NCBI GenBank assembly: GCA_037308085.1
Contig: CP147779.1
Span: forward strand, 1,632,001-1,696,000
DNA from: Promethearchaeati archaeon SRVP18_Atabeyarchaeia-1
Lineage (GTDB): Archaea; Asgardarchaeota; Atabeyarchaeia; Atabeyarchaeales; Atabeyarchaeaceae
Length of the DNA: 64,000 nt
Reading direction: 5' to 3'
This document shows, piece after piece, positions 10,323 to 31,524 of this stretch (positions within the stretch are counted from its first letter, which is position 1; each line of letters starts with the position of its first letter). Position numbers and translations under genes: made by a program. The notes under the pieces are model-generated. The model worked only from the letters and a program-made list of their open reading frames with translations. It was not told the DNA's origin and searched no databases.

Positions 10323-10480
10323 GGGGTTGGCTATTCCTACTTGAAGTGCAGAGCATGCGGCTTCGAGGCGAACCGAGACTGCGTCGCAAGCCTCAACATT
10401 GCCTTCAGGGCGGCCCAAACGAAAGACACGCCAAGAGCCTGCAAGATGTGCCAGTTTCCCGAGGGGGAGCGTCTCCTTCA
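10323..10480 (+). pseudogene. tnpB 3' remnant (zinc ribbon/RuvC-III), copy 1
   Basis: GYSYLKCRACGFEANRDCVASLNIA; similar to 12462-12638. Confidence 0.8.
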
Positions 10481-11043
10481 GGATGTGCTAACAATTACTA
10501 AATTAGTAGACAAAGATTGATGAAGACAGAAGGGCATAATGGGAATCGAAGTTCTTCCGCCGGCTATTGATATGGATCGTTTGATCCGCCTATTGAAGAA
10601 GAAGAGTAAGACGAGATCATTGAAGGAAGCTCGAAAGATTGAGGCTTAAATAAAGGAGCCTGAATTCTCATAAGATGGAAGATAAGGCGACCCCAGCCGG
10701 GACCGCAGGTGCGCATTCAAGCCTGAAGCCCAATAGGTTTCAACTAGGGTTGCCTGTGGCCGAGCGTGCTTCTTGAATGGTGCTGTGCCGACGGATTGCA
10801 CGATATACAGGAGACCAAGGAAAGCCGAAGGTTAGGTTGGGCGTTTGTCTGAGTGGTCTGCGACATCGATTGTGGGATCATTAACTCTCAGGTGATGAGT
10901 ACACTTCATGCTTGGGATCAGAATTATGCAACCTTCAATATGACTACGTGATTGCAGAGACAGTGTGTATTAATATAGGATTGTCAAGTCATACCATATT
11001 GATCAATGCAGTTGGAGCAACTCCTGGAGGCTGGAAACGGGAA

Positions 11044-11526
11044 ATGGTGTTCAGGATTTTTCTGAGTCACAGCACGCGCGATCAAGGAATAGTAGTGACC
11101 TTGGCAAATTTGATGACGAAGCTTGGGATAGAGGTGTTGGTGGCGGAGTGGTACTTGACTCCAGGGAGCAGTCTTGACGAGAAGGTTTTCCAACAGATTG
11201 ATGAGTCTGATTCAGTGGTTGTTCTATTGACGCAAAATGGAGTAAGATCGAACTGGGTCAATCAGGAACTTGGGTATGCGTTGAAGGCTGGGAAGCCAGT
11301 TATTCCCCTTGTGGAGAAGGGAATCGCTGAGAGGCAATTGGGATCGTTACAGGGAAAAGAGTACATAGAATATGATCCGGATCAGCCTCAACAGTCATTG
11401 ACTAAGGCATCGGCCTTCATGAACTCCCTGAAACTAGATAAGGAGAATAGGGAGAAAGGCTTGCTCGTCATTGGAGGCATTGTTCTCCTACTTTTATTGC
11501 TTTCAGGAACAGGAGGTGCCAGATAA
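11044..11526 (+). CDS. TIR-domain protein with C-terminal membrane anchor
   Basis: IFLSHS, SNWVNQELGYA (catalytic Glu), hydrophobic tail LLVIGGIVLLLLLL. Confidence 0.9.
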   Translation: MVFRIFLSHSTRDQGIVVTLANLMTKLGIEVLVAEWYLTPGSSLDEKVFQQIDESDSVVVLLTQNGVRSNWVNQELGYALKAGKPVIPLVEKGIAERQLGSLQGKEYIEYDPDQPQQSLTKASAFMNSLKLDKENREKGLLVIGGIVLLLLLLSGTGGAR

Positions 11527-11567: not shown

Positions 11568-11885
11568 TTGACCTTGCACCCAGATCACTTCTACAAGTCC
11601 AGGCCCAAGGTGGAGAAGGGATCTTTCAAAATCTGGTGGGATGATGAAGGACAGATCTGTGCCGTAGTCATTACTGACTTTGTGAAGGAGCTAGAGAAAT
11701 TCACGAACACTATGCATTCGATAAAGTTGGGGGGCATATGGAAAGGCATAGAAATTACTGAGAAGGATATCGCGGAGGCGCGCAGAGACCTGCTGAGAAA
11801 ACTCGAAGAGAAGTGGCGGGCGGATGAGGATACCGAGCAAACAGATGAGAACTCAAAGAGAGACCTTGAAGAGGCGCATAGCTGA
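11568..11885 (+). CDS. putative antitoxin
   Basis: Stop overlaps the PIN gene start; KLGGIWKGIEITEKDIAEARR tail typical of PIN-toxin partners. Confidence 0.6.
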   Translation: MTLHPDHFYKSRPKVEKGSFKIWWDDEGQICAVVITDFVKELEKFTNTMHSIKLGGIWKGIEITEKDIAEARRDLLRKLEEKWRADEDTEQTDENSKRDLEEAHS

Positions 11886-12277
11886 TGCCGTTCGTTGCCG
11901 ACACTCATGCACTAGTCTGGTACATGACGGACAACCCGTCCCTGTCCCTAACAGCTAAAAAGATCTTTCAGAGAGCTGACGGTGGAGAAGAGAAGATTCA
12001 CATTCCCTGCATAGTCTTTTTCGAACTGCTTTACCTTGTAGAGAAGGGAAAGGTTGGAATTGCTTTTGGTGACTTTGTCTCGATGTTTACTTTTTCGAGT
12101 AACTACGTAGTTGAGCCAGTATGGGTGCCAGTCATCAAGAAAAGTTCTGAAATCCCGGACGGAATAGTCCCTGATCCTTGGGATAGACTCATTGCTGCCA
12201 CATCGATGCATCTGAATCTCCCTTTGATAACGCGAGACAGGACTCTTCGGAGAATCGGATTAAGAACAATCTGGTAG
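11885..12277 (+). CDS. vapC: PIN-domain (VapC) toxin
   Basis: DTHALVW, DPWDRLIAAT, LITRD. Confidence 0.9.
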   Translation: MPFVADTHALVWYMTDNPSLSLTAKKIFQRADGGEEKIHIPCIVFFELLYLVEKGKVGIAFGDFVSMFTFSSNYVVEPVWVPVIKKSSEIPDGIVPDPWDRLIAATSMHLNLPLITRDRTLRRIGLRTIW

Positions 12278-12461: not shown

Positions 12462-12638
12462 GTCCACGGCGAAGGCGAACTGGGTCGGCTACTCCTACTT
12501 CAAGTTCCCTGCATGTGGCTTTGAGGCAAACCGTGACCGCGTGGCGAGCCTCAACATCGCCCTCAGGGCGGTCCAAGCACAAGACACACCAAGCGCCGAC
12601 AGGATGGGCCAGTTTCCTGGGGGGAGCGCCTCCGTCAG
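12462..12638 (+). pseudogene. tnpB 3' remnant, copy 2
   Basis: NWVGYSYFKFPACGFEANRDRVASLNIALRA. Confidence 0.8.
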
Positions 12639-12679
12639 TAAGGTAAACAATAAAGTTACTTCGCAAGTAGTCGCATTAG

Positions 12680-12810
12680 AGGTACACTCATCTAGCAGTT
12701 ATCAGTTATAGCGTGATAGCGAACTGCTAGACAAGTGTACCCAATATGTCAATAAACCCGCCTTACCTTAAAAAACAATAAGGAATCGATCTCCTCACTT
12801 GCTCGATCTC
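12680..12810 (-). repeat. promoter + leader hairpin element, copy 1
   Basis: Homologous to 18515-18648; GGTACACT/AGTGTACC and TCTAGCAGTT/AACTGCTAGA arms; minus-strand TTTTTAAG box. Confidence 0.8.
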
Positions 12811-12946
12811 TTGTGGGCTTTTATCTTCTGTCAATCTCTAAGACTAGCCGTCTCGACAAACCACGTAAGAGGTCTTGCTAGGACTCCTGACTTAAACGGG
12901 CGTGCGCGTCCGACCTCACACATTCTCCGCAGCGCATTAGGGAGCG

Positions 12947-14098
12947 CTATTTTTCAAATCTAGCGAGCAGTTCCTTTAATCCTACATTATAGCCTTGTCT
13001 GAAATCGGCGTACTCCTTGTCTGCAATGAGTGGGGGTATCTTGCATTTTTGAAGCAAAACAGGTAATACGACCACAGATTTCATCTGCAGTTCTTTCATC
13101 AATGCCGCATTAAGCTCTTTCCTAACCCAATTGGATCTGACGGATGCTTTTGAAAGAACAGTAATAAAGTAATCATTCTTTTCGATTCCTTCGTTTATCT
13201 TATCAAGTAGTGAGTCTCCTACTCTTATTTCCCATTTGTCAATCCAGATCTTTATGTTAGCGCGCTCTAAGTCTTCTACTAAACGATCAACGAATATTGA
13301 GTCCCGATGGGAATAGCATATGAACACGTGATCTGACCGCTTTAAATCATTCTTACTAGGCATACTCTTTGCCCCCAACAACCTGTCTGCTTCAGCGTTC
13401 CTCTCTCGCTCGGCACGCCGATCATCGAGAATGGCTTCTCTAAATCCTCTTGCTTTTTCTTCCAAGTCCTCTAGACCAACTACCCTAACTCTTTCATTTT
13501 TGCGAAAATAGGACATAAGGACGTCAAGGTATGGCTCTCCGTCGTCAAACACGATTTCGTCGGTCATTAGATGTGCTTTAACTTTGGACTCTCTCAATAG
13601 TATTTTCCAATGATTTCGCTTGAACATTCTAAATAGCTTCTCTACTTCATTTCTCCTATTTTGCTTTCTCTCCGACTCCTTTTTCATACGATAATTCCTG
13701 ACGTACGGTAAAATGAGATACACGAATATCGCTGGTAACACCCACCAAACTATCGCAATCGGTCCTAAGATGAAGAAAACAGAGATAGCTGACGATGATG
13801 GCAAAATGTAGCTAGGCAAGAAATATGGTAGATACAATATGAAAAGTGAGCCAACTGTTAAGACACCACCAACAATACCCCAATACAGCAGTAACTCATT
13901 ATCCCAGTCGTGGATGAGAGTAGGCACAAATAATATTGGCAAAAACACCCACCAAACTATTGTAATCGTTCCTAGAATGAAGAAAGCATCGATAGAGAAA
14001 AATGACGGTACAAACCATATGAAACATGAGACAAAAATCAAGCCAATGCCGATAGTAAGCCAATACTTGAGAAAATCACCCCAATCATACCAGCTCAA
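12947..14098 (-). CDS. multi-TM protein with C-terminal TIR domain
   Basis: 4 N-terminal TMs; VFICYSHRD, IWIDKWEI.VGDSL, SNWVRKEL. Confidence 0.9.
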   Translation of the reverse strand: MSWYDWGDFLKYWLTIGIGLIFVSCFIWFVPSFFSIDAFFILGTITIVWWVFLPILFVPTLIHDWDNELLLYWGIVGGVLTVGSLFILYLPYFLPSYILPSSSAISVFFILGPIAIVWWVLPAIFVYLILPYVRNYRMKKESERKQNRRNEVEKLFRMFKRNHWKILLRESKVKAHLMTDEIVFDDGEPYLDVLMSYFRKNERVRVVGLEDLEEKARGFREAILDDRRAERERNAEADRLLGAKSMPSKNDLKRSDHVFICYSHRDSIFVDRLVEDLERANIKIWIDKWEIRVGDSLLDKINEGIEKNDYFITVLSKASVRSNWVRKELNAALMKELQMKSVVVLPVLLQKCKIPPLIADKEYADFRQGYNVGLKELLARFEK

Positions 14099-14323
14099 AC
14101 TATCAGCTCCTATTGCGTCTCAAAATGATCACGCAGCGCGCGCTAGTAGTGATCGTCCAGTGTGCTAAAATTGCTAAAGATCATGAATCAATCAAAGAAG
14201 TTAAAGAGTTAAAGCCAAACTTCTTTGACTATCTCTCATGAGTTCCCCCAAACTCTTCTTTGGCGAGCGCCCTTTATCTTTTCCGATGTCAGAACGAATC
14301 AGTGTCTCTTAGAGAAAGTACTA

Positions 14324-14917
14324 TCATCGTCTCCAGTAGATATCCCACTTTTTCCTCTGACTGGAATAATTATTTCGCATGCGCCCATTGTTGTGTCTCC
14401 TTACGTTAGCCCAAACGAAAGTAAGATAGTTTTTCATCCATTCTTCTCTTGCAACTCTTCTTTCGATGAAGTCTCCCGACAACTCATCGTCATACAATAC
14501 GAACATATATGCGTGGCGTAAATCTGTCTTGAGCGTTCTTAATTTCTCAAGGTCTTTATTGATGCTAGGAATTTGTAAGCCGTCTAATTGGCACTTCAAT
14601 TCGATGGCGTCTACAAGTTGTGTACCTTTATAAATCGTGATATCTGGCTTTACAAATGTATCTTCCTTGGTCGGTCCATGGCTCAATTCAATGAGCGGTT
14701 GTGACCTTAGAAACCATCGTTCGCTTCTTTCATTTTCGAAATACTTTCTTAGCCAATAATAAGCTGCAGCTTGCATATCAAACTCTGAATAAACGAAATT
14801 TGAATACCAATCCTCAACAAGCTTCTCAGGGAGATCATTCAATATCCATGAATCAGCCTTCGATTCTCCTGGTGATTCTCTTACCTTCCTCAACTCATTA
14901 GCACTCATTTCATTCAC
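14324..14917 (-). CDS. PD-(D/E)XK nuclease-like protein
   Basis: KPDITI...AIELK...DLEKL. Confidence 0.65.
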   Translation of the reverse strand: MNEMSANELRKVRESPGESKADSWILNDLPEKLVEDWYSNFVYSEFDMQAAAYYWLRKYFENERSERWFLRSQPLIELSHGPTKEDTFVKPDITIYKGTQLVDAIELKCQLDGLQIPSINKDLEKLRTLKTDLRHAYMFVLYDDELSGDFIERRVAREEWMKNYLTFVWANVRRHNNGRMRNNYSSQRKKWDIYWRR

Positions 14918-14961
14918 CTACTTCTCCTCACAGGCTTTCCGTGCCTCCCGCACCCAATACG

Positions 14962-15128
14962 ATAACCACGCTCTACCTTAAAAATAGTAAAGGAATTGAT
15001 CCCCTTACTTCCCGCTCGACCTCTATCAAGTGCTATGGCTTCTGATACCTATATCTGAAAAGGGGTGTCTCAACTTTGTGACCGAAATGTAGACGGCTCA
15101 TCTTTTCGATAGCATCCTTCATGTCTTC
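14962..15128. repeat. direct repeat A (112-bp exact core 14971-15082)
   Basis: Identical to 18595-18706; diverged flanks. Confidence 0.92.
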
Positions 15129-15884
15129 GTCAATATCGGTGGAGAAGAATGCCTTATGATCGTAGCCCCAATGTGTTTTGGTTTCTGGTATGAGCACTTC
15201 TTGACTCCACAGATATTTTACGCTCGGATAATGAACCACGTTCAGCAGGAAAGCTCCTGCCAACGCATTGAGAGCATTGTCTACGTTTGCTTTCTCAATG
15301 GAAGAAGACCATTCGTGCTTTAGATCATTGTACGCCATCCACCAATCAGGAACAATATGCGCTCCGTACTTACTCCGATCGAACTTCTCGAATGGTCTGA
15401 GTGGTATCTCTCCATACCAACTTGACTTCGCCACCAACTCTGCTCCACTATTAGATGATAGTTCATAGATCGATTCAAAGGCATCTCTCGCAACGAAAAT
15501 ACTGTAATCCTTCTCTACCTTCTTACCGTTCTTGTCGGTCTCCCACCATGCCTTTTCAATGGCATCTCTGCTTTTGTCGAATTTCATGAAGTCAGGAAAG
15601 TCTCTCATCTGCTTAAAGACATCATCCATGTATCCGCATACCCTCAAAATCAAGTCGAGTAGCTTAGGTGAGAAACCACATCTGTTTCTATCTGCATAGG
15701 GGACATACTCAAAGAACCTGATCAGATCAGTCTCGTAGTATCCATATAATGTCCAACAGAGACCTTTCTCAAAGGCAGTTCCACTTTGGTTTCTCGGCAG
15801 GATCATTCCCCTCTCCGCTTGTCGATCACAACTATCATGACTCTGCCCATACGAAGAAGACGAGAGCGTACTTGAATCCATCAT
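15033..15884 (-). CDS. hypothetical protein, possibly HEPN-like
   Basis: PDWWMAYNDLKH (NxxKH) motif; helical. Confidence 0.55.
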   Translation of the reverse strand: MMDSSTLSSSSYGQSHDSCDRQAERGMILPRNQSGTAFEKGLCWTLYGYYETDLIRFFEYVPYADRNRCGFSPKLLDLILRVCGYMDDVFKQMRDFPDFMKFDKSRDAIEKAWWETDKNGKKVEKDYSIFVARDAFESIYELSSNSGAELVAKSSWYGEIPLRPFEKFDRSKYGAHIVPDWWMAYNDLKHEWSSSIEKANVDNALNALAGAFLLNVVHYPSVKYLWSQEVLIPETKTHWGYDHKAFFSTDIDEDMKDAIEKMSRLHFGHKVETPLFRYRYQKP

Positions 15885-16348
15885 TTCTTTTGGGTGTATA
15901 CTATCTTTTGTATTGTGTTACAACTCTCCTCAAGATTCTTCTCGTCATCGCGGATAATATCTTCATAAAACTGAATGTCTCTTCTTACTTTCTTAAGTGT
16001 ATTCTCGTCATTTTGTCTGTGTAAGCAATATTCCTTACCCCTGTTCTTACAGCCACCAGATGTATACGCGTACCGAGTACACTCCCCCTTTTTTGAGCAA
16101 TCAGCTAGCAACGATACGAAAAATCTCTCAGAATCCTTCCGCTCGTCCCTGAGAATCCTGTTCTTGATCAGCCTATCGTGTATGCCATTTATCCTTTCGA
16201 GCATGATATTCAAGTTCTTTCTGGTAGCTCTATCCTTAATCACAGTAAGAAGTGTATTCAAAAGCTTAACTGTATCACCCGCTATTTCAGACATTTCCCT
16301 CTGCCTCCCTCGCTCCCTATTCCTCAAGGAATCGGCACGTAATCCCAA
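15881..16348 (-). CDS. hypothetical protein
   Basis: Overlaps both neighbours; Cys cluster and coiled coil; true start probably at MSEIAG. Confidence 0.55.
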   Translation of the reverse strand: MGLRADSLRNRERGRQREMSEIAGDTVKLLNTLLTVIKDRATRKNLNIMLERINGIHDRLIKNRILRDERKDSERFFVSLLADCSKKGECTRYAYTSGGCKNRGKEYCLHRQNDENTLKKVRRDIQFYEDIIRDDEKNLEESCNTIQKIVYTQKK

Positions 16349-18462
16349 TAACCGATCTGATCCAGACGCTTAGATACCTCGTCTTTCATCCCTTTCCTAC
16401 ACTTTGCGGTATCTACCTTCGATTGTCTGATTAACTCAACGACTTCGCCTATAGTATGACCGTCATAGACAAGGCAGTCCTTACATAAATTGAACAGGTA
16501 CTCAACGCCCTTGGTGAGACTTTCGCCACCGAACCTGAAAACCTTGTTAGTGCCAAAGAAGCCGATCTTCTCCTTGGCGTAGTTGGCGAATAAGGCGTGG
16601 AGAGCCGAATAGGCTAAGATCTCCAGCGTTTCCCGTCTTGAAGTGTCTGGGAGATGAACATAGGCATTGTCGAAATAAATAGGGTGCAGTATATCAGTCA
16701 TAGATGTCCAAAACGCACGAGCGCCAACAGACACGCTCCAGAGCCCATAAAACAATTCATCTGGCACGTTTGGGATTCCCACTACCTTCTTTACATTTTC
16801 GGGTACGACTTCAGAGCCTCCTTTTGCTACATCCAAATGAAATACCTTCGGTGCTGGCGCGTTAAATGTGTCGCAATGCTGAACAGCAATCTCTCCTCTT
16901 ATCACTTCCCTGTTGTCGTATGCCCATCCGTCCTTCAATAGAGGCATCTTCTTGAAGACGGTTTTTTTCGTACCGCCACTCTTGTCTACGAATTCAAAAC
17001 TCAGATCAAGATGTTTGGAATTTGTGTTCGGCGCGTACTCCCAGATTGTAAAAGCAATAGGTTTGATCTTGCTAATGTCGTGGAAGTAGTTGCCCGCAAA
17101 AATGTAACCCTTTAGGAACCTGAAGTCCTTCAGCAACGCGGTCAAGAGTTTCATATAGCGTTCTCTGCCACAGAACAAACCGAATGGTGAGAAGAAAGCC
17201 AAACAACAGGTCTCATGAGCCTTGGCGATCTCGATGAGCCTTCCGACGATGGGCAAGAACAGGTCGCCTTTCCCGTACTTCTCCAATACGCGAGGATACT
17301 CCTGCCCAACCACTGTCGATGACTGCTTTCTTGATAACTTCCCGTTCATTTCCCCCTTCTTTGACACCAACACGTTAGTTGACGTTGTCCCAAATGGTGG
17401 ATTTGTGTAGAGCAGTAACTTCTTGTCAGCAGGTACATCCCAAGCCTTAATCAGAACATCGGTTAAAGTATTGACCACATCAAGTGTGGTGAACTTCCAC
17501 TCATACCCGCTAAATATCTTCTTGCAGTTTTCTATGTGGCTACTGCTAATATCATTCATGGCTCCCTTGATTTGTGGAACGATGTTCTTTATCAATGATC
17601 CTCCGCCAACACATGGTTCAACAACATAATCTGGTTTAGTCAATCCCAGTATTTCATCAGCTACCTTGTCGCCGATCTCCTCCTCAGTCCAGAAAACCCC
17701 ATATTCACGCCTCTTCTTTCGAGATAGAAGACGATCCAACTCGTGGAGAATTTCTGCAAGGTCTTCGTGCTTAACACGCAGAGACTCAAACCAAGAAGCG
17801 TCAATCGGCTTTATCGCTAGGTGCTTGGGTTTGTGAGTCCCTCCGTACTCTGTCGGTAGTTCGCTTAGCTTTCTCTCGTCACTGCGTTCGTTAGTGAATC
17901 TCTCTGGCTTGTCCATGTTCACAAGCCAACCGTCTTTGTTAACTTTGATAATGTCATCCTCGCCTACTCCGTCAAGCCAGTTGACCAAATGATCAAGTTC
18001 TATTCTATACTTGTCAGTCATCAACTTGATTGAGTTTATGTTGTCCTTATTTATGAAGAGAAATTTTGATGTCGGCAATTCCAGTTCTATGATCTTGTCA
18101 GGCTCGCCTAAGATCTTCTCGGCTTGCTCGTTTAGTCCTGGTTTGTCCGCTTCGTTTGATTCGAATGCCAGCCTTGGATCAAAACTCATGACAAAAGTCG
18201 ATATTCTCTCAAAAGAAGGTCGTGAATACAACTTGACAACTCTATTATCTGCGACGCCAAGATATTTCGCGTCCTTGATTCCTTCCTTCGCTATTGCGTG
18301 AAGTAACTGGGCGGGCGCAAAATGGTCAGGCTTGACCTCTATATAGACTCTGTTCTTCTCATCTGCGATATCGCAAAAGCTGTCTATGAACTTGAACTTG
18401 AAGCCGAGTGTAGTTTTGTTCAAGTAGTCTTTTATCTTCAAGGACAACGCTTTTTCACTCAT
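16324..18462 (-). CDS. fused restriction endonuclease-amino methyltransferase (type IIG/ISP-like)
   Basis: N-terminal CDIAD...YIEVK; GVFWT, EPCVGGGSL (motif I), YTNPPF (motif IV). Confidence 0.8.
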   Translation of the reverse strand: MSEKALSLKIKDYLNKTTLGFKFKFIDSFCDIADEKNRVYIEVKPDHFAPAQLLHAIAKEGIKDAKYLGVADNRVVKLYSRPSFERISTFVMSFDPRLAFESNEADKPGLNEQAEKILGEPDKIIELELPTSKFLFINKDNINSIKLMTDKYRIELDHLVNWLDGVGEDDIIKVNKDGWLVNMDKPERFTNERSDERKLSELPTEYGGTHKPKHLAIKPIDASWFESLRVKHEDLAEILHELDRLLSRKKRREYGVFWTEEEIGDKVADEILGLTKPDYVVEPCVGGGSLIKNIVPQIKGAMNDISSSHIENCKKIFSGYEWKFTTLDVVNTLTDVLIKAWDVPADKKLLLYTNPPFGTTSTNVLVSKKGEMNGKLSRKQSSTVVGQEYPRVLEKYGKGDLFLPIVGRLIEIAKAHETCCLAFFSPFGLFCGRERYMKLLTALLKDFRFLKGYIFAGNYFHDISKIKPIAFTIWEYAPNTNSKHLDLSFEFVDKSGGTKKTVFKKMPLLKDGWAYDNREVIRGEIAVQHCDTFNAPAPKVFHLDVAKGGSEVVPENVKKVVGIPNVPDELFYGLWSVSVGARAFWTSMTDILHPIYFDNAYVHLPDTSRRETLEILAYSALHALFANYAKEKIGFFGTNKVFRFGGESLTKGVEYLFNLCKDCLVYDGHTIGEVVELIRQSKVDTAKCRKGMKDEVSKRLDQIGYWDYVPIP

Positions 18463-18514
18463 AGTCTTCTCCCCTCCCCACAACCTTGAAGGAATTTACA
18501 GGCACACACAACAA

Positions 18515-18752
18515 AGGTACACCCATCTAGCAGGTATCAGTTAAAGCGTGATAGCGACCTACTAGACAATTATACCCATATGACCATAACCACACTCTAC
18601 CTTAAAAATAGTAAAGGAATTGATCCCCTTACTTCCCGCTCGACCTCTATCAAGTGCTATGGCTTCTGATACCTATATCTGAAAAGGGGTGTCTCAACTT
18701 TGTGACGGAAACGTAGACGACTCATCTATTCGACGGCATCCTTCATGTCTTC
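18515..18752. repeat. leader hairpin/promoter copy 2 plus direct repeat B containing a duplicated 3' end of ORF 15033-15884
   Basis: Direct sequence comparison; offset 3624 bp from repeat A. Confidence 0.9.
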
Positions 18753-19059
18753 ATCTTCCATATGTCGCTATCACGCTCCTGCTAGAAAAACCGTCTTTCC
18801 CTGAGAAAAAGGAGACCGCTGAAGGTTCCAAGGCTTCAAGATACTTCCTGCAATGTACTCAGGTTTGCTGAATGCAACTTATCTGTGCTGGGAGTGGTAA
18901 TTTTTGCTGTTGCTTGTTTTATTGCTTCGACTGCCAGCGGAGGCAAATATGAACGCGTTGGTGAACGAAGGGCCAGACGTTGGATGAAAGAGTGTTCTTG
19001 AATTTCAACGTTAAAGGCACATTTCTAGGTTCTTGAGGGTGATCGGTGATGCCTCTTTT

Positions 19060-20154
19060 TCAAAGAGAGGATCTGAGCAACTTTGAGATCTTTTCGATCT
19101 TGTCTTGTGTGCCGGTCGATGGAATCTTCTCCCATCCGCCTTTTGTTTCGAAGGTGCTTTCGCCGGGCTTCTTCCTCCACACTTCGAGAAGATCTTTTAT
19201 GCTGTCGGGATTATAGTTCCCGTATCTCTTGGATAGTTCAGGTATGACTTTTGGCAAGACTCTCAAGAAGGATCGAAGCGCGATCGCGGTCTTGATGCTG
19301 TAGTCATGATTGTTCCACGCGTGTGGAAAAACCTCTTCGGCTATGACTTTGAAGTACTGAACCAGAAAATTGCCCAAGTATGGCTTTATCGAAGACCAGC
19401 TGCTTGGAGCCTTAGCCATTTCAGCAACAAGCTGTTTGAACTCTGCACCTAGGGCCGATAGGCTTACCCATCCCTTTTCTTCACCGGTTATCTTGACTTT
19501 CTGATATAATGGCGAGTTCGACTCGAGTGCAAGAGGCTTCAGGTAATCATGTGCTGGTATGATCCACTTTAGTTCTTGCACCAAGTTCTCATAGTCTTTC
19601 ATTCTGGGTGCCAATTCGAAATATAGCGAGGTTGGTATCCTAGTTTGCTTCGAATTTATCATCACAAATAGTGCGGCCATATCTTCGTCTCTCAGGCTAT
19701 CCATAATGATTGTGGGAACAGTTATGTCAAATCTCGACTTATTCTTTTTCAGAAGGTTTTGTAGTGCAACGAATCTGTGCTGGCCGTCAAGGACCTCGAA
19801 CAGGTATTTCTTATTCGGCAGCGTTAATTCATTCTTGTCGAACTCTAGCTCTTGATGAGTGACCAATATCAGCGTGCCCGGAAAAGCGGGGATAGGTGCG
19901 CCCTTCGAACATTCCTGGAAGTATCTCATCAGTTCTTTTATTTTCTTTGCCTTTATGGGTCTCTGAAATGCTTTTGAACTTTTCATTATACGCGACCAGT
20001 CTATTACGCCCTCTTTTCTCTTCTTGACTTCGAATCCCAAAGATTCGTAGGAGATCATCTGTAATTTCACTAGGTTGTCCAACCGGGATGCTTTAATCGG
20101 CGAGAAGTAAAGGTATTTCCCAAATTGTTCTATTTTAAAAGCTGGTTCTTTCAT
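19060..20154 (-). CDS. DGQHR-domain (DndB/ParB-like) protein
   Basis: FQRP, VLDGQHR, LFVMINSKQ. Confidence 0.9.
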   Translation of the reverse strand: MKEPAFKIEQFGKYLYFSPIKASRLDNLVKLQMISYESLGFEVKKRKEGVIDWSRIMKSSKAFQRPIKAKKIKELMRYFQECSKGAPIPAFPGTLILVTHQELEFDKNELTLPNKKYLFEVLDGQHRFVALQNLLKKNKSRFDITVPTIIMDSLRDEDMAALFVMINSKQTRIPTSLYFELAPRMKDYENLVQELKWIIPAHDYLKPLALESNSPLYQKVKITGEEKGWVSLSALGAEFKQLVAEMAKAPSSWSSIKPYLGNFLVQYFKVIAEEVFPHAWNNHDYSIKTAIALRSFLRVLPKVIPELSKRYGNYNPDSIKDLLEVWRKKPGESTFETKGGWEKIPSTGTQDKIEKISKLLRSSL

Positions 20155-20695
20155 CTATTCTTATCACCCAGCCCGGGGGAATCTGAATGGTACCGCCAAT
20201 AAGATCATTACAGGTTTTACACGCGGTGGCAAGATTCTGCGGATCAGACTTGCCGTGAAGTGCTCGTGGAACTATGTGGTGGATTTGTAGATCATTCTCA
20301 CTTCCACAGTATCTGCATCTATGGTTGTCTCTCTGAAGAATTGAATTCTTTGTGATGATGTCAAAGTCCTCAGAGCCGGCAAAAATTATCTTCCAGATTA
20401 GATGCAGAATCTCGATTTCGTAGTCATCTAATATGAGGTAGTCGATGCCAGTTCTACGCTTCAATTCCTCTCGAAAACTCTTCAGGCTTTCGTCTTTCGG
20501 TCCCAGTCTTGTCAAGAACAGCAACCTTTGTTTCTCTTTCTCACCTCTTAGCCAAAGTCTGATGCTTCTTACTTTCTGAAGCCTGATATATCTCAGCACT
20601 TCAAGAAGTTCTGGTATACTGTCCTCAGGGTTACCCCATCTCTTGAGCAGGTCTGCGATCTCCTCCTCTTTCGAGGTGCTTCCCTCCATGTCCAT
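20135..20695 (-). CDS. HNH endonuclease
   Basis: RDNHRCRYCG...HHIVPR...NLATACKTCN. Confidence 0.9.
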   Translation of the reverse strand: MDMEGSTSKEEEIADLLKRWGNPEDSIPELLEVLRYIRLQKVRSIRLWLRGEKEKQRLLFLTRLGPKDESLKSFREELKRRTGIDYLILDDYEIEILHLIWKIIFAGSEDFDIITKNSILQRDNHRCRYCGSENDLQIHHIVPRALHGKSDPQNLATACKTCNDLIGGTIQIPPGWVIRIDERTSF

Positions 20696-22303: not shown

Positions 22304-23617
22304 CTGCCAGCCTCCAAATCTCTGTTAGGGTAACTATGAGACTAGTTACCGCACCTTGCCAATCGAGTTTCGAACACGCATATGATCCTCTAGACCAGTA
22401 CCGTCCCGCCCCACAAGAGATTCCTCTCACTCAGCAATATACGAGTCCAATATATATAGTTGGGTAGAGCGCCAAGAAAACTGAAGACACGTCAGAACAA
22501 CGAGTAAGACTTACCTCCTCCATCAACCTTCTTGATTTCGCGTCTGAGTCGCTTTACCTATTTTGAGGGTCTTATCAGCTTAGATGCCTTTGGCGGTTAT
22601 CTCTGAAAGGTTGAAAGGTTTGATCATCCATATTCGATCCTGCCTATCTGCTCACATGCGTCTCCATCTCAGCATCCATCTAATTTCTATTTGAATTCAA
22701 CAATCCAGTCTACCCGTTTCCGACCAGAGAACCAAATTCACTTATAAAAGCGCTAATATAAGCTACATAGCTATAGGCATCCGTTTAGGTAGGCATTTCT
22801 GACCCCAACAGCCTACCCTTCTCACGTCAAAAACCCTTCCTAATTAGCCAAAACAATTCAAATCAATTCGACTATTATTCCTCACTCTGACCCGAATAAT
22901 CCTGATTTATCTTCATTCGATGCAGGATAATAACCTAATTCATGTTCTTCTCTTGATTTCAAGACAATATCCTCTGCCTCTGGTCTCTCCAAATTCAATT
23001 TGCCACGGGCAAATGGACAGCTTCATCTGTGGATAGACTCTCCCCTTCATGCTTCGCTCTCCACTTCGAGACCAGACATCTTGATGCCCAACAATATTCA
23101 CTCATGTGAATTCGCCTAGAATGATCGCGTTGCTGCAGTGGCACAGAAAGCGCTGGATAGAATCGCTTAAAGAAGCTGGGAATCGAGGAACTCCGCTGAA
23201 GTTTAAGATCTCCTGAAACAGAATGAGAGGGGCTGTAGCTAAGCCTTCGACCATCTTCCTCTTCTTTCGTTTCTGTTCAGCTCAACTGCCTTTCTCAAGT
23301 CCTCCACGAAGTCGCTCCACTCAAATCCCATGCAGGTCCCTGTTTCTCTGGTGCGCTCCCTATACAATGTTATAATTGGTGATGATGCATAATTGGGGAG
23401 ATTTATGGATGTCGCAATGCCTCCACAAGGGATATATCACACGCCCGACGACTAGAGAAGCGAATATTCCAGCTGAGAAATGAGGGGGAACGGCCGACAG
23501 CATGAGTGCAGGAAATGATGATTTCGAGAAGGGCCGATGCTGGGCACAATACACATTCATGGAAGACGAGCTGCTCGACTTCATGTGTGAACCATAGCTC
23601 GTGGAGGGGTTCCATAA

Positions 23618-29977: not shown

Positions 29978-31321
29978 CTATTTCTCCACCTGATTCTCTT
30001 CGCTATCTTTGTCTTCCTTACGTGTCAGACCGATCACTGTCTTCAATGCCTTCTCCAACTCTTCGATCCTCTTCTCCATATTCTGAATAGCCCTGGCCTG
30101 AGTGTCGTTTCTGACTCTGAGTTCCAATACTTCATCCTTATCTTCAGACTTAACTACATCTCCGAGTCTCTTATTCGCAGATTCCAAAGCAACTGTCCTA
30201 CCAACCAGGTCGGAGACTGTATCTAGTAGTCTCTGATTCTCTTCCCTGATCTCCGCAACATTATTGTTAAGACCATTGCCATTGCCACTGCTAATCGAAA
30301 GATAAGGCTCATACTTTAGATATTGTTGTTTGACCTCTTCCGACTGATTCTCCCTGTACGCTTTTCCAAGGCTGCCAATAGCATGACCTAGCCAGAATTC
30401 TATGATCGAGTCATTGCATCCATTCTCGGCCAATATCTTCGAAAAACTTGATCTGAGTGCATGCGGGGTGACATCACTGATAGGCTCATCGCCTTTGATC
30501 AATCCTGATCTCTTCGCAACATCCCTAACCATTACTTCTACCGCGCTCCGGCTCAGCGGCTCAAAGGCCTGACCCCTGCGACCGTACTCCTTGAAGAATA
30601 AAGGATCGCTTCTTCCCAATTCAATGCCTTGAGCATTCTTCAGGTCTTCAAGGTATGTTTTCAGCGCTGATATTGCATCGAAACCCAGATACGTGTTAAA
30701 GCGCGTGTGGGTCTTCTTGCGAAATAGATCAAGTCTCAAAGGATGCTCACTCTCTTCCAGGCCTCTGGCGACATCTCCATAGCTCAATCCCGTAAGAGTA
30801 GAAACATCGATCCCACTCTGATACATCACTAAGATCATGACCCTGTCCCGGATCGACAGGCAGTGTTCAAGCATTTTCTTAACATCTCTAGGGATGAGTT
30901 TTCTTCTCCTGAATTTTATCTCACTCTCTCCAAGGTTCATTCTCACTCTCACGTCAAACGTGGCGTAGAAGCTGCGGATCGCCATCACTGCCGACCTAGA
31001 AGACTCTTCGGTATGATTCTTCTTCATGTGATTAAGAAAACCTATCAGGGATATTGACACTACATCTCTTCGCTCTCTAACATCCTTCCCCTGATCCTCA
31101 ATCGCTTCGTCTATGACCTGCTTGGGAGTCTTCCTGATGTATTCGAGGTATTGCCTTAGTCTAAGCAGATAGTTACGGCGCGTACGCTCTTTCGATTGCT
31201 TCATTATCCACCTGTTAACATAAGCGTCCTTCAGTAATAGCTCATTTACCCCCGTTTCAACCGTCAATACTGCCTGCCCACACTCCTGGGAGTCGCTCAT
31301 TTCCCTAGGGATATATGGCAC
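29978..31321 (-). CDS. tyrosine recombinase/integrase with C-terminal coiled coil
   Basis: RDRVMILVMYQSG, RKKT, HALR, LGH, AY; first catalytic Arg position reads D (SGIDV). Confidence 0.9.
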   Translation of the reverse strand: MPYIPREMSDSQECGQAVLTVETGVNELLLKDAYVNRWIMKQSKERTRRNYLLRLRQYLEYIRKTPKQVIDEAIEDQGKDVRERRDVVSISLIGFLNHMKKNHTEESSRSAVMAIRSFYATFDVRVRMNLGESEIKFRRRKLIPRDVKKMLEHCLSIRDRVMILVMYQSGIDVSTLTGLSYGDVARGLEESEHPLRLDLFRKKTHTRFNTYLGFDAISALKTYLEDLKNAQGIELGRSDPLFFKEYGRRGQAFEPLSRSAVEVMVRDVAKRSGLIKGDEPISDVTPHALRSSFSKILAENGCNDSIIEFWLGHAIGSLGKAYRENQSEEVKQQYLKYEPYLSISSGNGNGLNNNVAEIREENQRLLDTVSDLVGRTVALESANKRLGDVVKSEDKDEVLELRVRNDTQARAIQNMEKRIEELEKALKTVIGLTRKEDKDSEENQVEK

Positions 31322-31524
31322 CTACTTGATATAAGTATTTCTCTGTATATACGTCAGTAGGCGCGTTTGGCAAGGTGAAGGGTTTGAAAGGTCGCGCCAG
31401 ACAACCCCGAGTTGCAAGCCCACAAGCTTAAGCGGTGGGTAACTGACCATAGCACGATACTTAGTCCCGGTTGTATCTTGCAGCCTCCCTACCATGAAGA
31501 TCAAGACAAATCTAGCAACCCTGA

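Follow-up and report, generated by a model that had tools for sequence, protein, structure and literature searches.

A repeated promoter-like and hairpin module of an Atabeyarchaeia genome as a possible outward-facing end-piece of islands inserted in tnpB relics

Results

The 64,000-nt window analysed here (the whole stretch of DNA) comes from the genome of the archaeon SRVP18_Atabeyarchaeia-1, and contains several copies of a module consisting of a promoter-like block and a hairpin, whose existence is confirmed by repeat analysis. Three of the four hairpin copies, including that at 12680-12810, start exactly 40 nt after the core CCTCCGTCAGTA, the point at which islands with Xer-like integrases and small cassettes interrupt the 3′ (guide-RNA) end of tnpB relics. 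Given this fixed distance, we read the module as the attL-proximal, outward-facing end-piece of tnpB-targeting islands, with a promoter and hairpin that would fire on the minus strand and boost the integrase in the excised circle; our confidence in this reading is about even. The features of the window are collected in Table 1.

Table 1. Position, strand and supporting evidence of the features discussed (window coordinates)
Feature	Position	Strand	Evidence
Second 3′ relic of tnpB, interrupted at the identical core position, different tail after it	10324..10481	+	Repeat comparison, TNB match
tnpB 3′ relic, 169 nt, terminating in the att core	12472..12640	+	Cas12f1-like TNB match; 84-89% identity with four full-length IS copies (~1350 nt) at their 3′ ends
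att core CCTCCGTCAGTA, 12 nt, attL side	12629..12640		Every tnpB copy diverges directly after the core
39-nt arm from core to hairpin; contains an AGTAG motif and a small hairpin of its own	12641..12679		87-92% identity among three attL copies; absent from internal copy 18515
Hairpin copy 1, 25 bp, all paired on the minus strand	12680..12743	-	Fold of 12678-12745, -33.9 kcal/mol, z -7.4; pair counts
Promoter-like block copy 1, TATA-like box 12767-12775, pointing outward to attL	12744..12820	-	Alignment, nhmmer
197-aa gene 3′ of the promoter-only copy	14324..14917	-	No family match
Promoter-only copy, TATA-like box 14977-14984, left unit of the 173-nt repeat; predicted TSS ~14953	14955..15131	-	45 nt before ATG 14908
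Three-gene module (719, 155 and 283 aa) flanked by the 173-nt repeats	15033..18483	-	719 aa: weak methyltransferase-like match
Internal hairpin copy (copy 2), lacking arm and core	18515..18578	-	52 nt upstream of ATG 18462; fold of 18513-18580, minus -25.0 kcal/mol (z -4.2) vs plus -14.4
Third promoter-block copy (TATA-like box 18601-18608), with a remnant of the final 32 codons of the 283-aa gene	18579..18755	-	Right unit of the 173-nt repeat
Probable inverted, internally deleted hairpin relic with the invariant apical motif	18762..18786	+	nhmmer E 0.34 genome-wide; ~180 nt from a full copy
Xer-like tyrosine integrase, right end of the island, start towards attR	29978..31321	-	Phage_integrase E 2e-17; XerA-like E 3e-26, below cut-off
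attR: core ACGTCAGTA (31352-31360), then displaced 88-nt tnpB 3′ tail (31361-31447) ending TAACTGAC	31352..31447	+	98% match to the tails of intact IS copies

Copies of the module

Throughout the 2.81-Mb genome, nhmmer detects only four hairpin copies and five promoter-block copies, and nothing beyond these. Hairpin and promoter block stand together at 12680-12810 and 18515-18648 and, outside the window, at C1:1709150 and C1:832028; the single promoter-only copy of the genome lies in the window at 14955-15025. An earlier, sequence-only reading of this DNA had proposed that the same element occurs at 12680-12810 and 18515-18648. Indeed, the two hairpins are 89% identical over 64 nt (12680-12743 and 18515-18578), a genome-wide BLAST search with 18515-18648 returns the other full copies with E values of 2e-27 to 2e-39, and a three-copy family comprises 12741-12800, 14951-15010 and 18575-18634. 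The promoter-only copy, which had been placed at 14962-15025, also stands: it belongs to the left unit of a 173-nt repeat (14959-15131 and 18583-18755, 95% identical) which also takes in the 3′-terminal 32 codons of the 283-aa gene (15033-15884). As to the inverted, internally deleted copy suggested at ~18757-18786, the match is weak when taken alone (BLAST, 17 nt at 94%); yet the fragment is probably a real relic, since it lies close to a full copy and retains the apical motif. This motif of 17 nt is invariant across the four hairpin copies, and its 14-nt core AGCGTGATAGCGAC survives in the inverted fragment too. Altogether, the claim of a discrete and reused module is supported, the promoter block being 72-95% conserved between copies whose flanks are dissimilar. 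Identity decreases the farther a part lies from the core (arm ~90%, hairpin ~80%, promoter ~70%), a gradient that agrees better with a constraint on the att arm than with one on an RNA.

The expectation that further copies would be found held within this genome, which contributed the two hairpin copies outside the window, and failed beyond it: BLAST finds none in 60 relatives, nor does a covariance model over 150 Asgard genomes. Likewise, three exact patterns, two of the hairpin and one of the arm, had no match in collections of metagenome, genome and viral contigs. A five-copy promoter/leader module confined to one genome is, taken alone, of modest interest.

Hairpin structure and promoter-like block

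All four hairpin copies fold better on the minus strand, with energies of -33.9, -25.0, -19.8 and -18.4 kcal/mol against -29.8, -14.4, -16.8 and -14.3 kcal/mol on the plus strand. Moreover, 90% of the pair cells are paired on the minus strand versus 77% on the plus, and G-U pairs occupy seven stem columns on the former versus one on the latter, in line with the previous remark that most other stem changes yield G-U pairs on the minus strand only. Judged by folds and pair counts, the hairpin thus behaves as the single-stranded minus-strand structure that had been described, and its reading as a minus-strand RNA is favoured but unproven. The compensatory exchange of a stem pair between copies was found as reported, together with a second one in the C1:1709150 copy, i.e., two compensatory pairs out of 25 from four sequences. 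Covariation over these four sequences is weak, 23-30 of 500 shuffles reaching the observed values; as two of the four copies are moreover decayed, the contention that the element is under selection finds no backing. The window holds no Rfam match at the gathering score, and scans of the two element regions at E ≤ 1 returned only one chance-level match, on the plus strand.

Upstream of the hairpin, the minus-strand TATA-like box TTTTTAAG stops 23-24 nt short of the first paired G (18577 and 12742), close to the ~25 nt given earlier, and the spacer is similar, by alignment, in the two copies outside the window. If transcription starts at the hairpin foot, this distance would match the usual archaeal spacing between TATA box and transcription start, about 24-30 nt. 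The box differs from the most enriched upstream words of the genome, TTAAAT/TAAATA, and TTTTAA is enriched 4.9-fold; genome-wide, AT-rich promoter words are enriched in both orientations. No clear BRE, the purine-rich element adjoining the TATA box that determines direction, is found upstream of the box (minus strand CCTTTACTA, plus strand CTCTACC, neither of them A-rich), and the box itself is AT-rich on both strands, so that its orientation rests on the strand bias of the hairpin and on the downstream genes.

These observations bear on the possibility that the module is a neutral relic, namely the terminal sequence of an old mobile element, which integration, homologous recombination and segmental duplication have multiplied and which has no present promoter or RNA function. 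We regard this as unlikely, although still credible, in view of the perfect pairing of the 25-bp hairpin at 12680, the seven-to-one excess of G-U pairs on one strand, the near-constant spacer between box and hairpin (23-24 nt at 12680 and 18515) and the conservation of the promoter block between dissimilar flanks. What speaks for a relic is the small number of copies (four to five, in one genome), the outcome of the shuffle control and the decay of C1:832028 (fold z -1.2, TATA box lost) and C1:1709150 (mismatches); furthermore, the 95% identical 173-nt repeat, the gene-end relic and the inverted fragment point to a recent, messy rearrangement. In favour of the end-piece reading, the best-formed hairpin and the intact box belong to the copy that shares its island with an intact integrase, while the C1:832028 relic has lost hairpin and box alike.

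Genes downstream of the module

Only two of the five module copies, 18515-18648 and 14955-15025, are followed by genes. In these cases, the minus-strand start codons lie 45 nt (197-aa gene, ATG 14908) and 115 nt (719-aa gene, ATG 18462) from the predicted transcript start, after GGAGG-like sites. On the other hand, the copies at 12680, C1:832028 and C1:1709150 face outward across the att core, the first two into a tnpB relic, with no gene following any of them. Listing the downstream genes, as had been proposed, therefore narrows the statement that the element heads gene modules to the internal copies, while 12680-12810 and the two copies outside the window face the core. The description of these genes as defence genes is only loosely true, the 719-aa product having a weak methyltransferase-like match and the 197-aa product no family match. 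Homologues of the 719-aa protein encoded in other contigs (72-77% identity) have a different upstream region with its own TATA box; on this ground, the module was rejected as the native leader of this gene family.

It was also considered that promoter and hairpin form a selected leader or small RNA, a common switch controlling cargo (defence) genes and having no link to the integration cycle. The minus-strand preference of the fold, the invariance of the 17-nt apex, whose 14-nt core persists in the inverted relic, and the suitable distance of two copies from minus-strand genes are all consistent with this. Nevertheless, we find it improbable: three of the four hairpin copies face the att core without a downstream gene, the 719-aa homologues use another upstream region, and family matches do not identify the downstream genes as defence genes.

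att structure and tnpB landing pad

Around 12 tnpB 3′ ends were compared, and all of them diverge at the core CCTCCGTCAGTA. In intact tnpB copies, the core falls within a small predicted hairpin of the ωRNA region; a full IS copy encodes a TnpB of 410 aa (TNB E 1.8e-19). The stretch beginning at the 12680 copy displays the core at both ends, the displaced part of the target at attR, 18.7 kb away, and an integrase beside the att site, as in integrative elements. In particular, the displaced 88-nt tail and the repeated core next to a tyrosine integrase support the attL/attR reading of the island. Each of the three attL copies has neighbouring sequence of its own, both to the left of the core and beyond the promoter block on the right, and the module can therefore be regarded as a discrete terminal unit. 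For the annotation, the 12680 copy marks an island boundary rather than a gene leader, and the internal copies mark recombination joints, making the island a composite. The window contains two attL-type junctions (10481 and 12640) versus one attR, and the 12680 end-piece and the integrase may or may not derive from one original element. The sequence-only reading had not recognised the module as the end, next to attL, of elements that an integrase mobilises and that sit in tnpB.

An integrase paralogue with 91% identity adjoins another attR, that of a second island of 26 kb, whose left end is unrelated to the module despite the near-identical enzyme; the module is thus not required by this integrase. 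Local alignments of the end-piece with the left end of this 26-kb island or with other tails gave z ≤ 2.1, and an apparent likeness around the start-site region was rejected. In the sister genome, an integrase of 39% identity has no tnpB-type att site beside it. Finally, core-separated arrays of small cassettes occur at C1:1709093-1711479; the small inserts of 620 and 910 bp, as well as a second cassette (C1:1710336-1711385), are without hairpin.

These data also permit an evaluation of the hairpin as a DNA-level accessory of recombination, i.e., a palindrome serving as a protein-binding or folded single-strand site (att arm or attC-like) and as a joint for module exchange. Its distance to the crossover, 40 nt for three of the copies, would suit such a role, as would the breaks of homology near the hairpin feet (at the left foot of 18515 and, at 14950-14959, 3-4 nt within the right foot), the inverted fragment at a rearrangement scar and the cassette arrays. 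However, the hairpin does not contain the crossover core, no core is found near the internal copy, the Xer-like integrase shows no sign of an arm-binding domain, and neither the island with the 91% identical integrase nor the 620- and 910-bp inserts carry such a hairpin, which makes this explanation quite improbable. The earlier idea of a cassette joint is not supported for the hairpin itself, since the crossover lies in the core 40 nt away, although core-separated cassette arrays do exist. Very improbable, in our view, is a broader version in which the hairpin acts with the Xer-like integrase as a folded single-strand recombination or regulatory site; together with the tnpB landing pads and the core-separated mini-cassettes, it would then make up an integron-like system for capturing genes in an archaeon, and would mark the joints at which modules are exchanged. 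As for the module being part of the TnpB transposon, either its right-end hairpin or a terminal ωRNA, this is hardly tenable even if three of the four copies lie directly 3′ of tnpB sequence on the plus strand: after the core, three of the four full-length IS copies have a different 88-nt tail ending TAACTGAC, the fourth has the 910-bp insert with the tail displaced to its far side, the same tail turns up 18.7 kb away at attR, and the better fold of the hairpin is on the strand that does not encode tnpB, with no Rfam match found. A plus-strand ωRNA replacement was likewise rejected owing to the poor plus-strand folds.

Proposed role in the integration cycle

Returning to the end-piece reading, the positions, the att structure and the strand bias of the fold are observed, and from them we infer promoter activity, an RNA and a circle-specific role for the module as follows. 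A small mobile-element family of this one Asgard genome carries, at its attL-proximal terminus, a conserved end-piece of ~180 nt in the order att core, 39-nt arm, 64-nt hairpin and promoter-like block, and its members insert by tyrosine (Xer-like) recombination at one exact spot in the 3′ guide-RNA region of tnpB copies. Most likely, the minus-strand block would act as an archaeal TATA-type promoter, from which a transcript beginning at the hairpin foot would yield an RNA with a 5′-terminal stem-loop. In the integrated state, the terminal copies would fire outward across the core and, at 12680 and C1:832028, into the tnpB relic. In the excised circle, promoter and hairpin would come to share a strand with the integrase gene, at a point ~160-260 nt upstream of it, so that extra integrase might be expressed from the circular form only, as with Pcirc of ICEclc. 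In the circle junction assembled in silico, no run of four or more T residues is present along the 362-nt path from the predicted start to the integrase. The integrase could also have its own promoter, since a conserved TATA-like sequence separates its start from attR. The internal copies 18515-18648 and 14955-15025 are taken as secondary recombination products, now placed before the 719-aa operon and the 197-aa gene. Should this scheme be correct, it would show how islands landing on a multi-copy transposon relic control their re-integration.

Comparison with known systems

Like integron attC sites, the hairpin is a bulged, imperfect palindrome of ~60 nt, strand-biased, and situated beside cassette-type units and a simple Xer-like tyrosine recombinase. 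It differs from them in that the crossover occurs in a separate 8-12-nt core, the junctions lying at CCTCCGTCAGTA 40 nt from the hairpin, most cassettes (among them those without hairpin described above) and the sister island lack it, and the R''/L''-L'/R' consensus is absent; no integron integrase or attI was identified. With IS200/IS605-family ends and TnpB ωRNAs it shares its hairpins and its location immediately 3′ of tnpB, but it replaces the true 88-nt ωRNA/right-end tail at the core, is absent from full-length IS copies, occurs only after the core of truncated or relic tnpB copies and folds better in antisense.

The bacterial ompA leader is a 5′-terminal stem-loop that stabilises its mRNA; similarly, the stem-loop predicted here starts at, or within 1-2 nt of, the transcript 5′ end. 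In IS911, IS2 and IS30, recombinase expression is boosted only when the ends are joined, by a promoter (Pjunc) assembled from two half-sites, one per end. The same joined-ends logic is proposed for the present module, in which, unlike Pjunc, a complete promoter-like block is located at one end.

The closest parallel is with ICEclc of Pseudomonas, whose outward-facing promoter Pcirc at the attL end becomes fused upstream of intB13 when the element excises (Sentchilo et al. 2003, reviewed in PMC5812530). In the archaeal island, too, the promoter-like block at the attL-proximal end faces out and the integrase occupies the opposite end, its start on the attR side; in the predicted circle, block and integrase would share a strand, separated by the att site and by no T-run. 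The differences are an archaeal host, a candidate promoter of TATA type, a circle that is predicted, a 25-bp 5′ hairpin between promoter and att site, a tnpB relic instead of a tRNA gene as target, and a sister island whose near-identical integrase is without the module. We found no report of an archaeal Pcirc-type switch, the literature not having been searched specifically for one. If outward firing and a circle-only fusion to the integrase hold true, the module would correspond, in an Asgard archaeon, to the Pcirc switch of ICEclc.

Copies of the repeated element

The window corresponds to C1:1632001-1696000 of a 2.81-Mb genome that consists of a single contig and contains an archaeal SSU rRNA. 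The sequence-only reading had described an intergenic element, a promoter followed by a leader hairpin, reused in this region, and its positions were borne out: 12680-12743 and 18515-18578 match at 89%, and a three-copy family is present at 12741-12800, 14951-15010 and 18575-18634. The genome-wide search that it had suggested returned four hairpin-plus-promoter copies (window 12680 and 18515, C1:1709150 and C1:832028) and one promoter-only copy. We found no copies in 60 relatives by BLAST, in 150 Asgard genomes with a covariance model, or in metagenome, genome and viral contig collections by pattern scans, and the element has no match in Rfam.

The element lies at a tnpB landing pad

A tnpB 3′ end (Cas12f1-like TNB domain) lies immediately before three of the four hairpin copies, read on the plus strand. 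A full-length copy of the IS (ca. 1350 nt) encodes a 410-aa TnpB. About 12 tnpB 3′ ends in the genome are common up to CCTCCGTCAGTA and then part at the same nucleotide. Of the four full-length IS copies, three continue from the 12-nt core into an 88-nt tail, gene and IS ending there at TAACTGAC; in the fourth (C1:2542354), an insert of 910 bp sits at the core. Where copies are intact, the guide-RNA region is predicted to form a small hairpin that includes the core. The remaining tnpB 3′ ends have unrelated tails after the core, and the hairpin element is one such tail, common to three junctions. Solo copies of the displaced 88-nt tail, headed by a repeated core (8-12 nt), occur elsewhere in the genome, one of them beside an integrase (see table); therefore, a tnpB relic here carries an 18.7-kb island as an insertion, with attL at 12640 and attR at 31352.

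From the core, the order is core, 39-nt arm, hairpin and promoter block. Identity among the three attL copies is 87-92% in the arm, 73-84% in the hairpin and 64-77% in the promoter block, beyond which the copies have no similarity at all. This tnpB/att context identifies the module as the attL-proximal end-piece. Left of the core the three copies differ as well (see table); the three attL junctions are separate rather than duplicates of one segment. The proposal that the element heads defence modules was thus not upheld, its home being the outward end of integrase-mobilised elements in tnpB pads; the earlier observation stands, and its interpretation is supported only in part.

Features at the tnpB core in the window and elsewhere on C1
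Feature	Location	Strand	Description
Left of core, 12680 copy	window 12472-12640		169-nt tnpB relic
Left of core, C1:832 kb copy			internally deleted IS
Left of core, C1:1709093 copy	C1:1709093		only 18 nt of core
Solo displaced tail plus core	window 31352-31447		ca. 30-50 nt from start of the minus-strand tyrosine recombinase
Tyrosine recombinase	window 29978-31321	minus	Phage_integrase, XerA-like
Integrase-less insert, same core	C1:2542354-2543275		910 bp, one gene
Integrase-less insert, same core	C1:2213708-2213074	minus	620 bp, one gene
Two-cassette array, same core	C1:1709093-1711479		no integrase

A 91% identical integrase is placed likewise at the attR of a 26-kb sister island (C1:1529226-1555639). 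The first ca. 15 codons of the integrase ORF in the window (31204-31321) are not kept in this paralogue, in which the ATG matching the listed start leads to a stop codon; translation probably begins more internally, perhaps at Met40 (31204). Integrase and att region aside, the only internal sequence common to both islands is window 22560-23118 (560 nt, without a long ORF), 92.5% identical to C1:1539431-1539989, possibly a backbone part that is conserved as non-coding sequence or as a small gene. The two small inserts (ca. 910 and 620 bp) have an 11-12-nt core at their bounds and each contains a TATA-like box and a CCTACT motif near the attR-side end; one sits inside a full-length IS copy. In the array (C1:1709093-1711392), cassettes of ca. 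1.2 and 1.05 kb, the second with a DUF4760 gene, are separated by tnpB-core copies without an integrase, the cores being GCCTCCGTCAGTA, GCCTCCGTCAGAA and CTACGTCAGTA plus the displaced tail. Finally, the window has a second tnpB 3′ relic (10324-10481), which breaks off at the identical position of the core; the first part of the tail behind it resembles the 26-kb island's left end (GTGCTNACAATT) before the similarity is lost, and a TIR gene (10912-11526) and a PIN/VapC gene (11885-12277) come after it.

Internal copies and island cargo

The copies inside the island look secondary. The promoter-only copy is part of a 173-nt repeat (14959-15131 and 18583-18755, 95%) that flanks a three-gene module (15033-18583) on both sides. 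The final 32 codons of gene 15033-15884 (minus strand) also fall within this repeat, which makes 18660-18755 a relic of the end of that gene. A scar is marked by an inverted fragment (ca. 18762-18786) that retains the apical part of the hairpin ca. 180 nt from a full copy and is a weak match genome-wide (E 0.34). The nearest relative of the promoter at 18579-18648 is the C1:1709150 copy (90%); identity to the copy at 12744 is only 72%. The 719-aa gene has close homologues elsewhere whose upstream region is different and has its own TATA box; the module was therefore grafted locally onto this gene.

The plus strand at 18483-18510 resembles the native TATA-box region upstream of homologues of this gene on other contigs, inverted relative to the gene (local alignment 24-27, shuffle mean 16, sd 2), and may reflect a small inversion or chance. 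The 719-aa protein itself (16324-18462, minus) belongs to no Pfam family, with only a weak type II methyltransferase-like match, and has >100 homologues (31-77% identity), usually in other gene neighbourhoods, in metagenomes and in MAGs of archaea (Nitrososphaerota, Heimdallarchaeota, Promethearchaeota). Also inside the island, DGQHR (DndB/DpdB-like) and HNH nuclease genes overlap (19060-20695, minus) and are likely a two-gene pair for defence or modification-dependent restriction.

Promoter-like block and hairpin

The minus-strand TATA-like box noticed earlier, TTTTTAAG, does end 23-24 nt before the first paired G of the hairpin (18577, 12742), the usual archaeal TATA spacing. No BRE is evident at the box, and the genome's upstream-enriched words (TTAAAT, TAAATA) do not decide promoter orientation. 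In the promoter-only copy, the predicted start (ca. 14953) is 45 nt before ATG 14908. In the copy at 18515, 52 nt containing a GGAGG-like site separate the hairpin from ATG 18462. The module is probably a portable minus-strand promoter plus leader.

The minus-strand RNA fold is better than the plus in all four copies (-33.9, -25.0, -19.8 and -18.4 vs -29.8, -14.4, -16.8 and -14.3 kcal/mol; z-scores -7.4, -4.2, -4.8 and -1.2 vs -6.8, -2.2, -1.3 and +0.1), and under a single 25-pair structure 90% of cells are paired for the minus strand against 77% for the plus. G-U pairs, already described for the minus strand, take up seven stem columns there and one on the plus strand (p ca. 0.035, one-sided, if transitions are taken as independent). 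The apical 17 nt are invariant. Full compensatory changes occur in two adjacent stem pairs, each in a different copy, where the earlier reading had described one such pair; as a covariation signal they are equalled by 23-30 of 500 shuffles. Because there are four sequences, shuffles do equally well at this rate, and two copies (C1:1709150 and C1:832028) show partial decay, a single-stranded minus-strand structure is favoured only weakly.

Proposed role and alternatives

A minus-strand promoter with a 5′ stem-loop is the best fit, and we consider an end-piece promoter with leader about evenly balanced between right and wrong. Three of the four hairpin copies, however, point outward past the core, in two cases towards a tnpB relic, and none of the three is followed by a gene. 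That the module is a functionless relic seems unlikely. A regulatory leader of cargo genes is somewhat less likely still. Slightly less credible again is an accessory of recombination acting as DNA. A TnpB-derived part is very improbable.

For the end-piece promoter, recombination between cores would give a circle in which one strand reads promoter, hairpin, arm, core, ca. 50-150 nt and integrase; the 362-nt in-silico path contains no run of four or more T. The best-formed hairpin and box belong to the copy sharing an island with an intact integrase, and the orphan C1:832028 has lost both. Such a role, like that of Pcirc in ICEclc, is perhaps half as probable as the promoter-and-leader reading itself. 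Against it, the left end is unrelated in the sister island, whose integrase is 91% identical; a TATA-like stretch is conserved between attR and integrase, so the integrase may have its own promoter; and, given the second broken tnpB relic, the window holds two attL-type junctions (10481, 12640) vs one attR, so that it is uncertain whether end-piece and integrase belong together.

Among known systems, the two-cassette array at the tnpB landing pad is similar in layout to an integron array. In ICEclc, Pcirc is an outward promoter at the attL end that boosts the integrase only after excision (PMC5812530), and the circle geometry of the module would match it.
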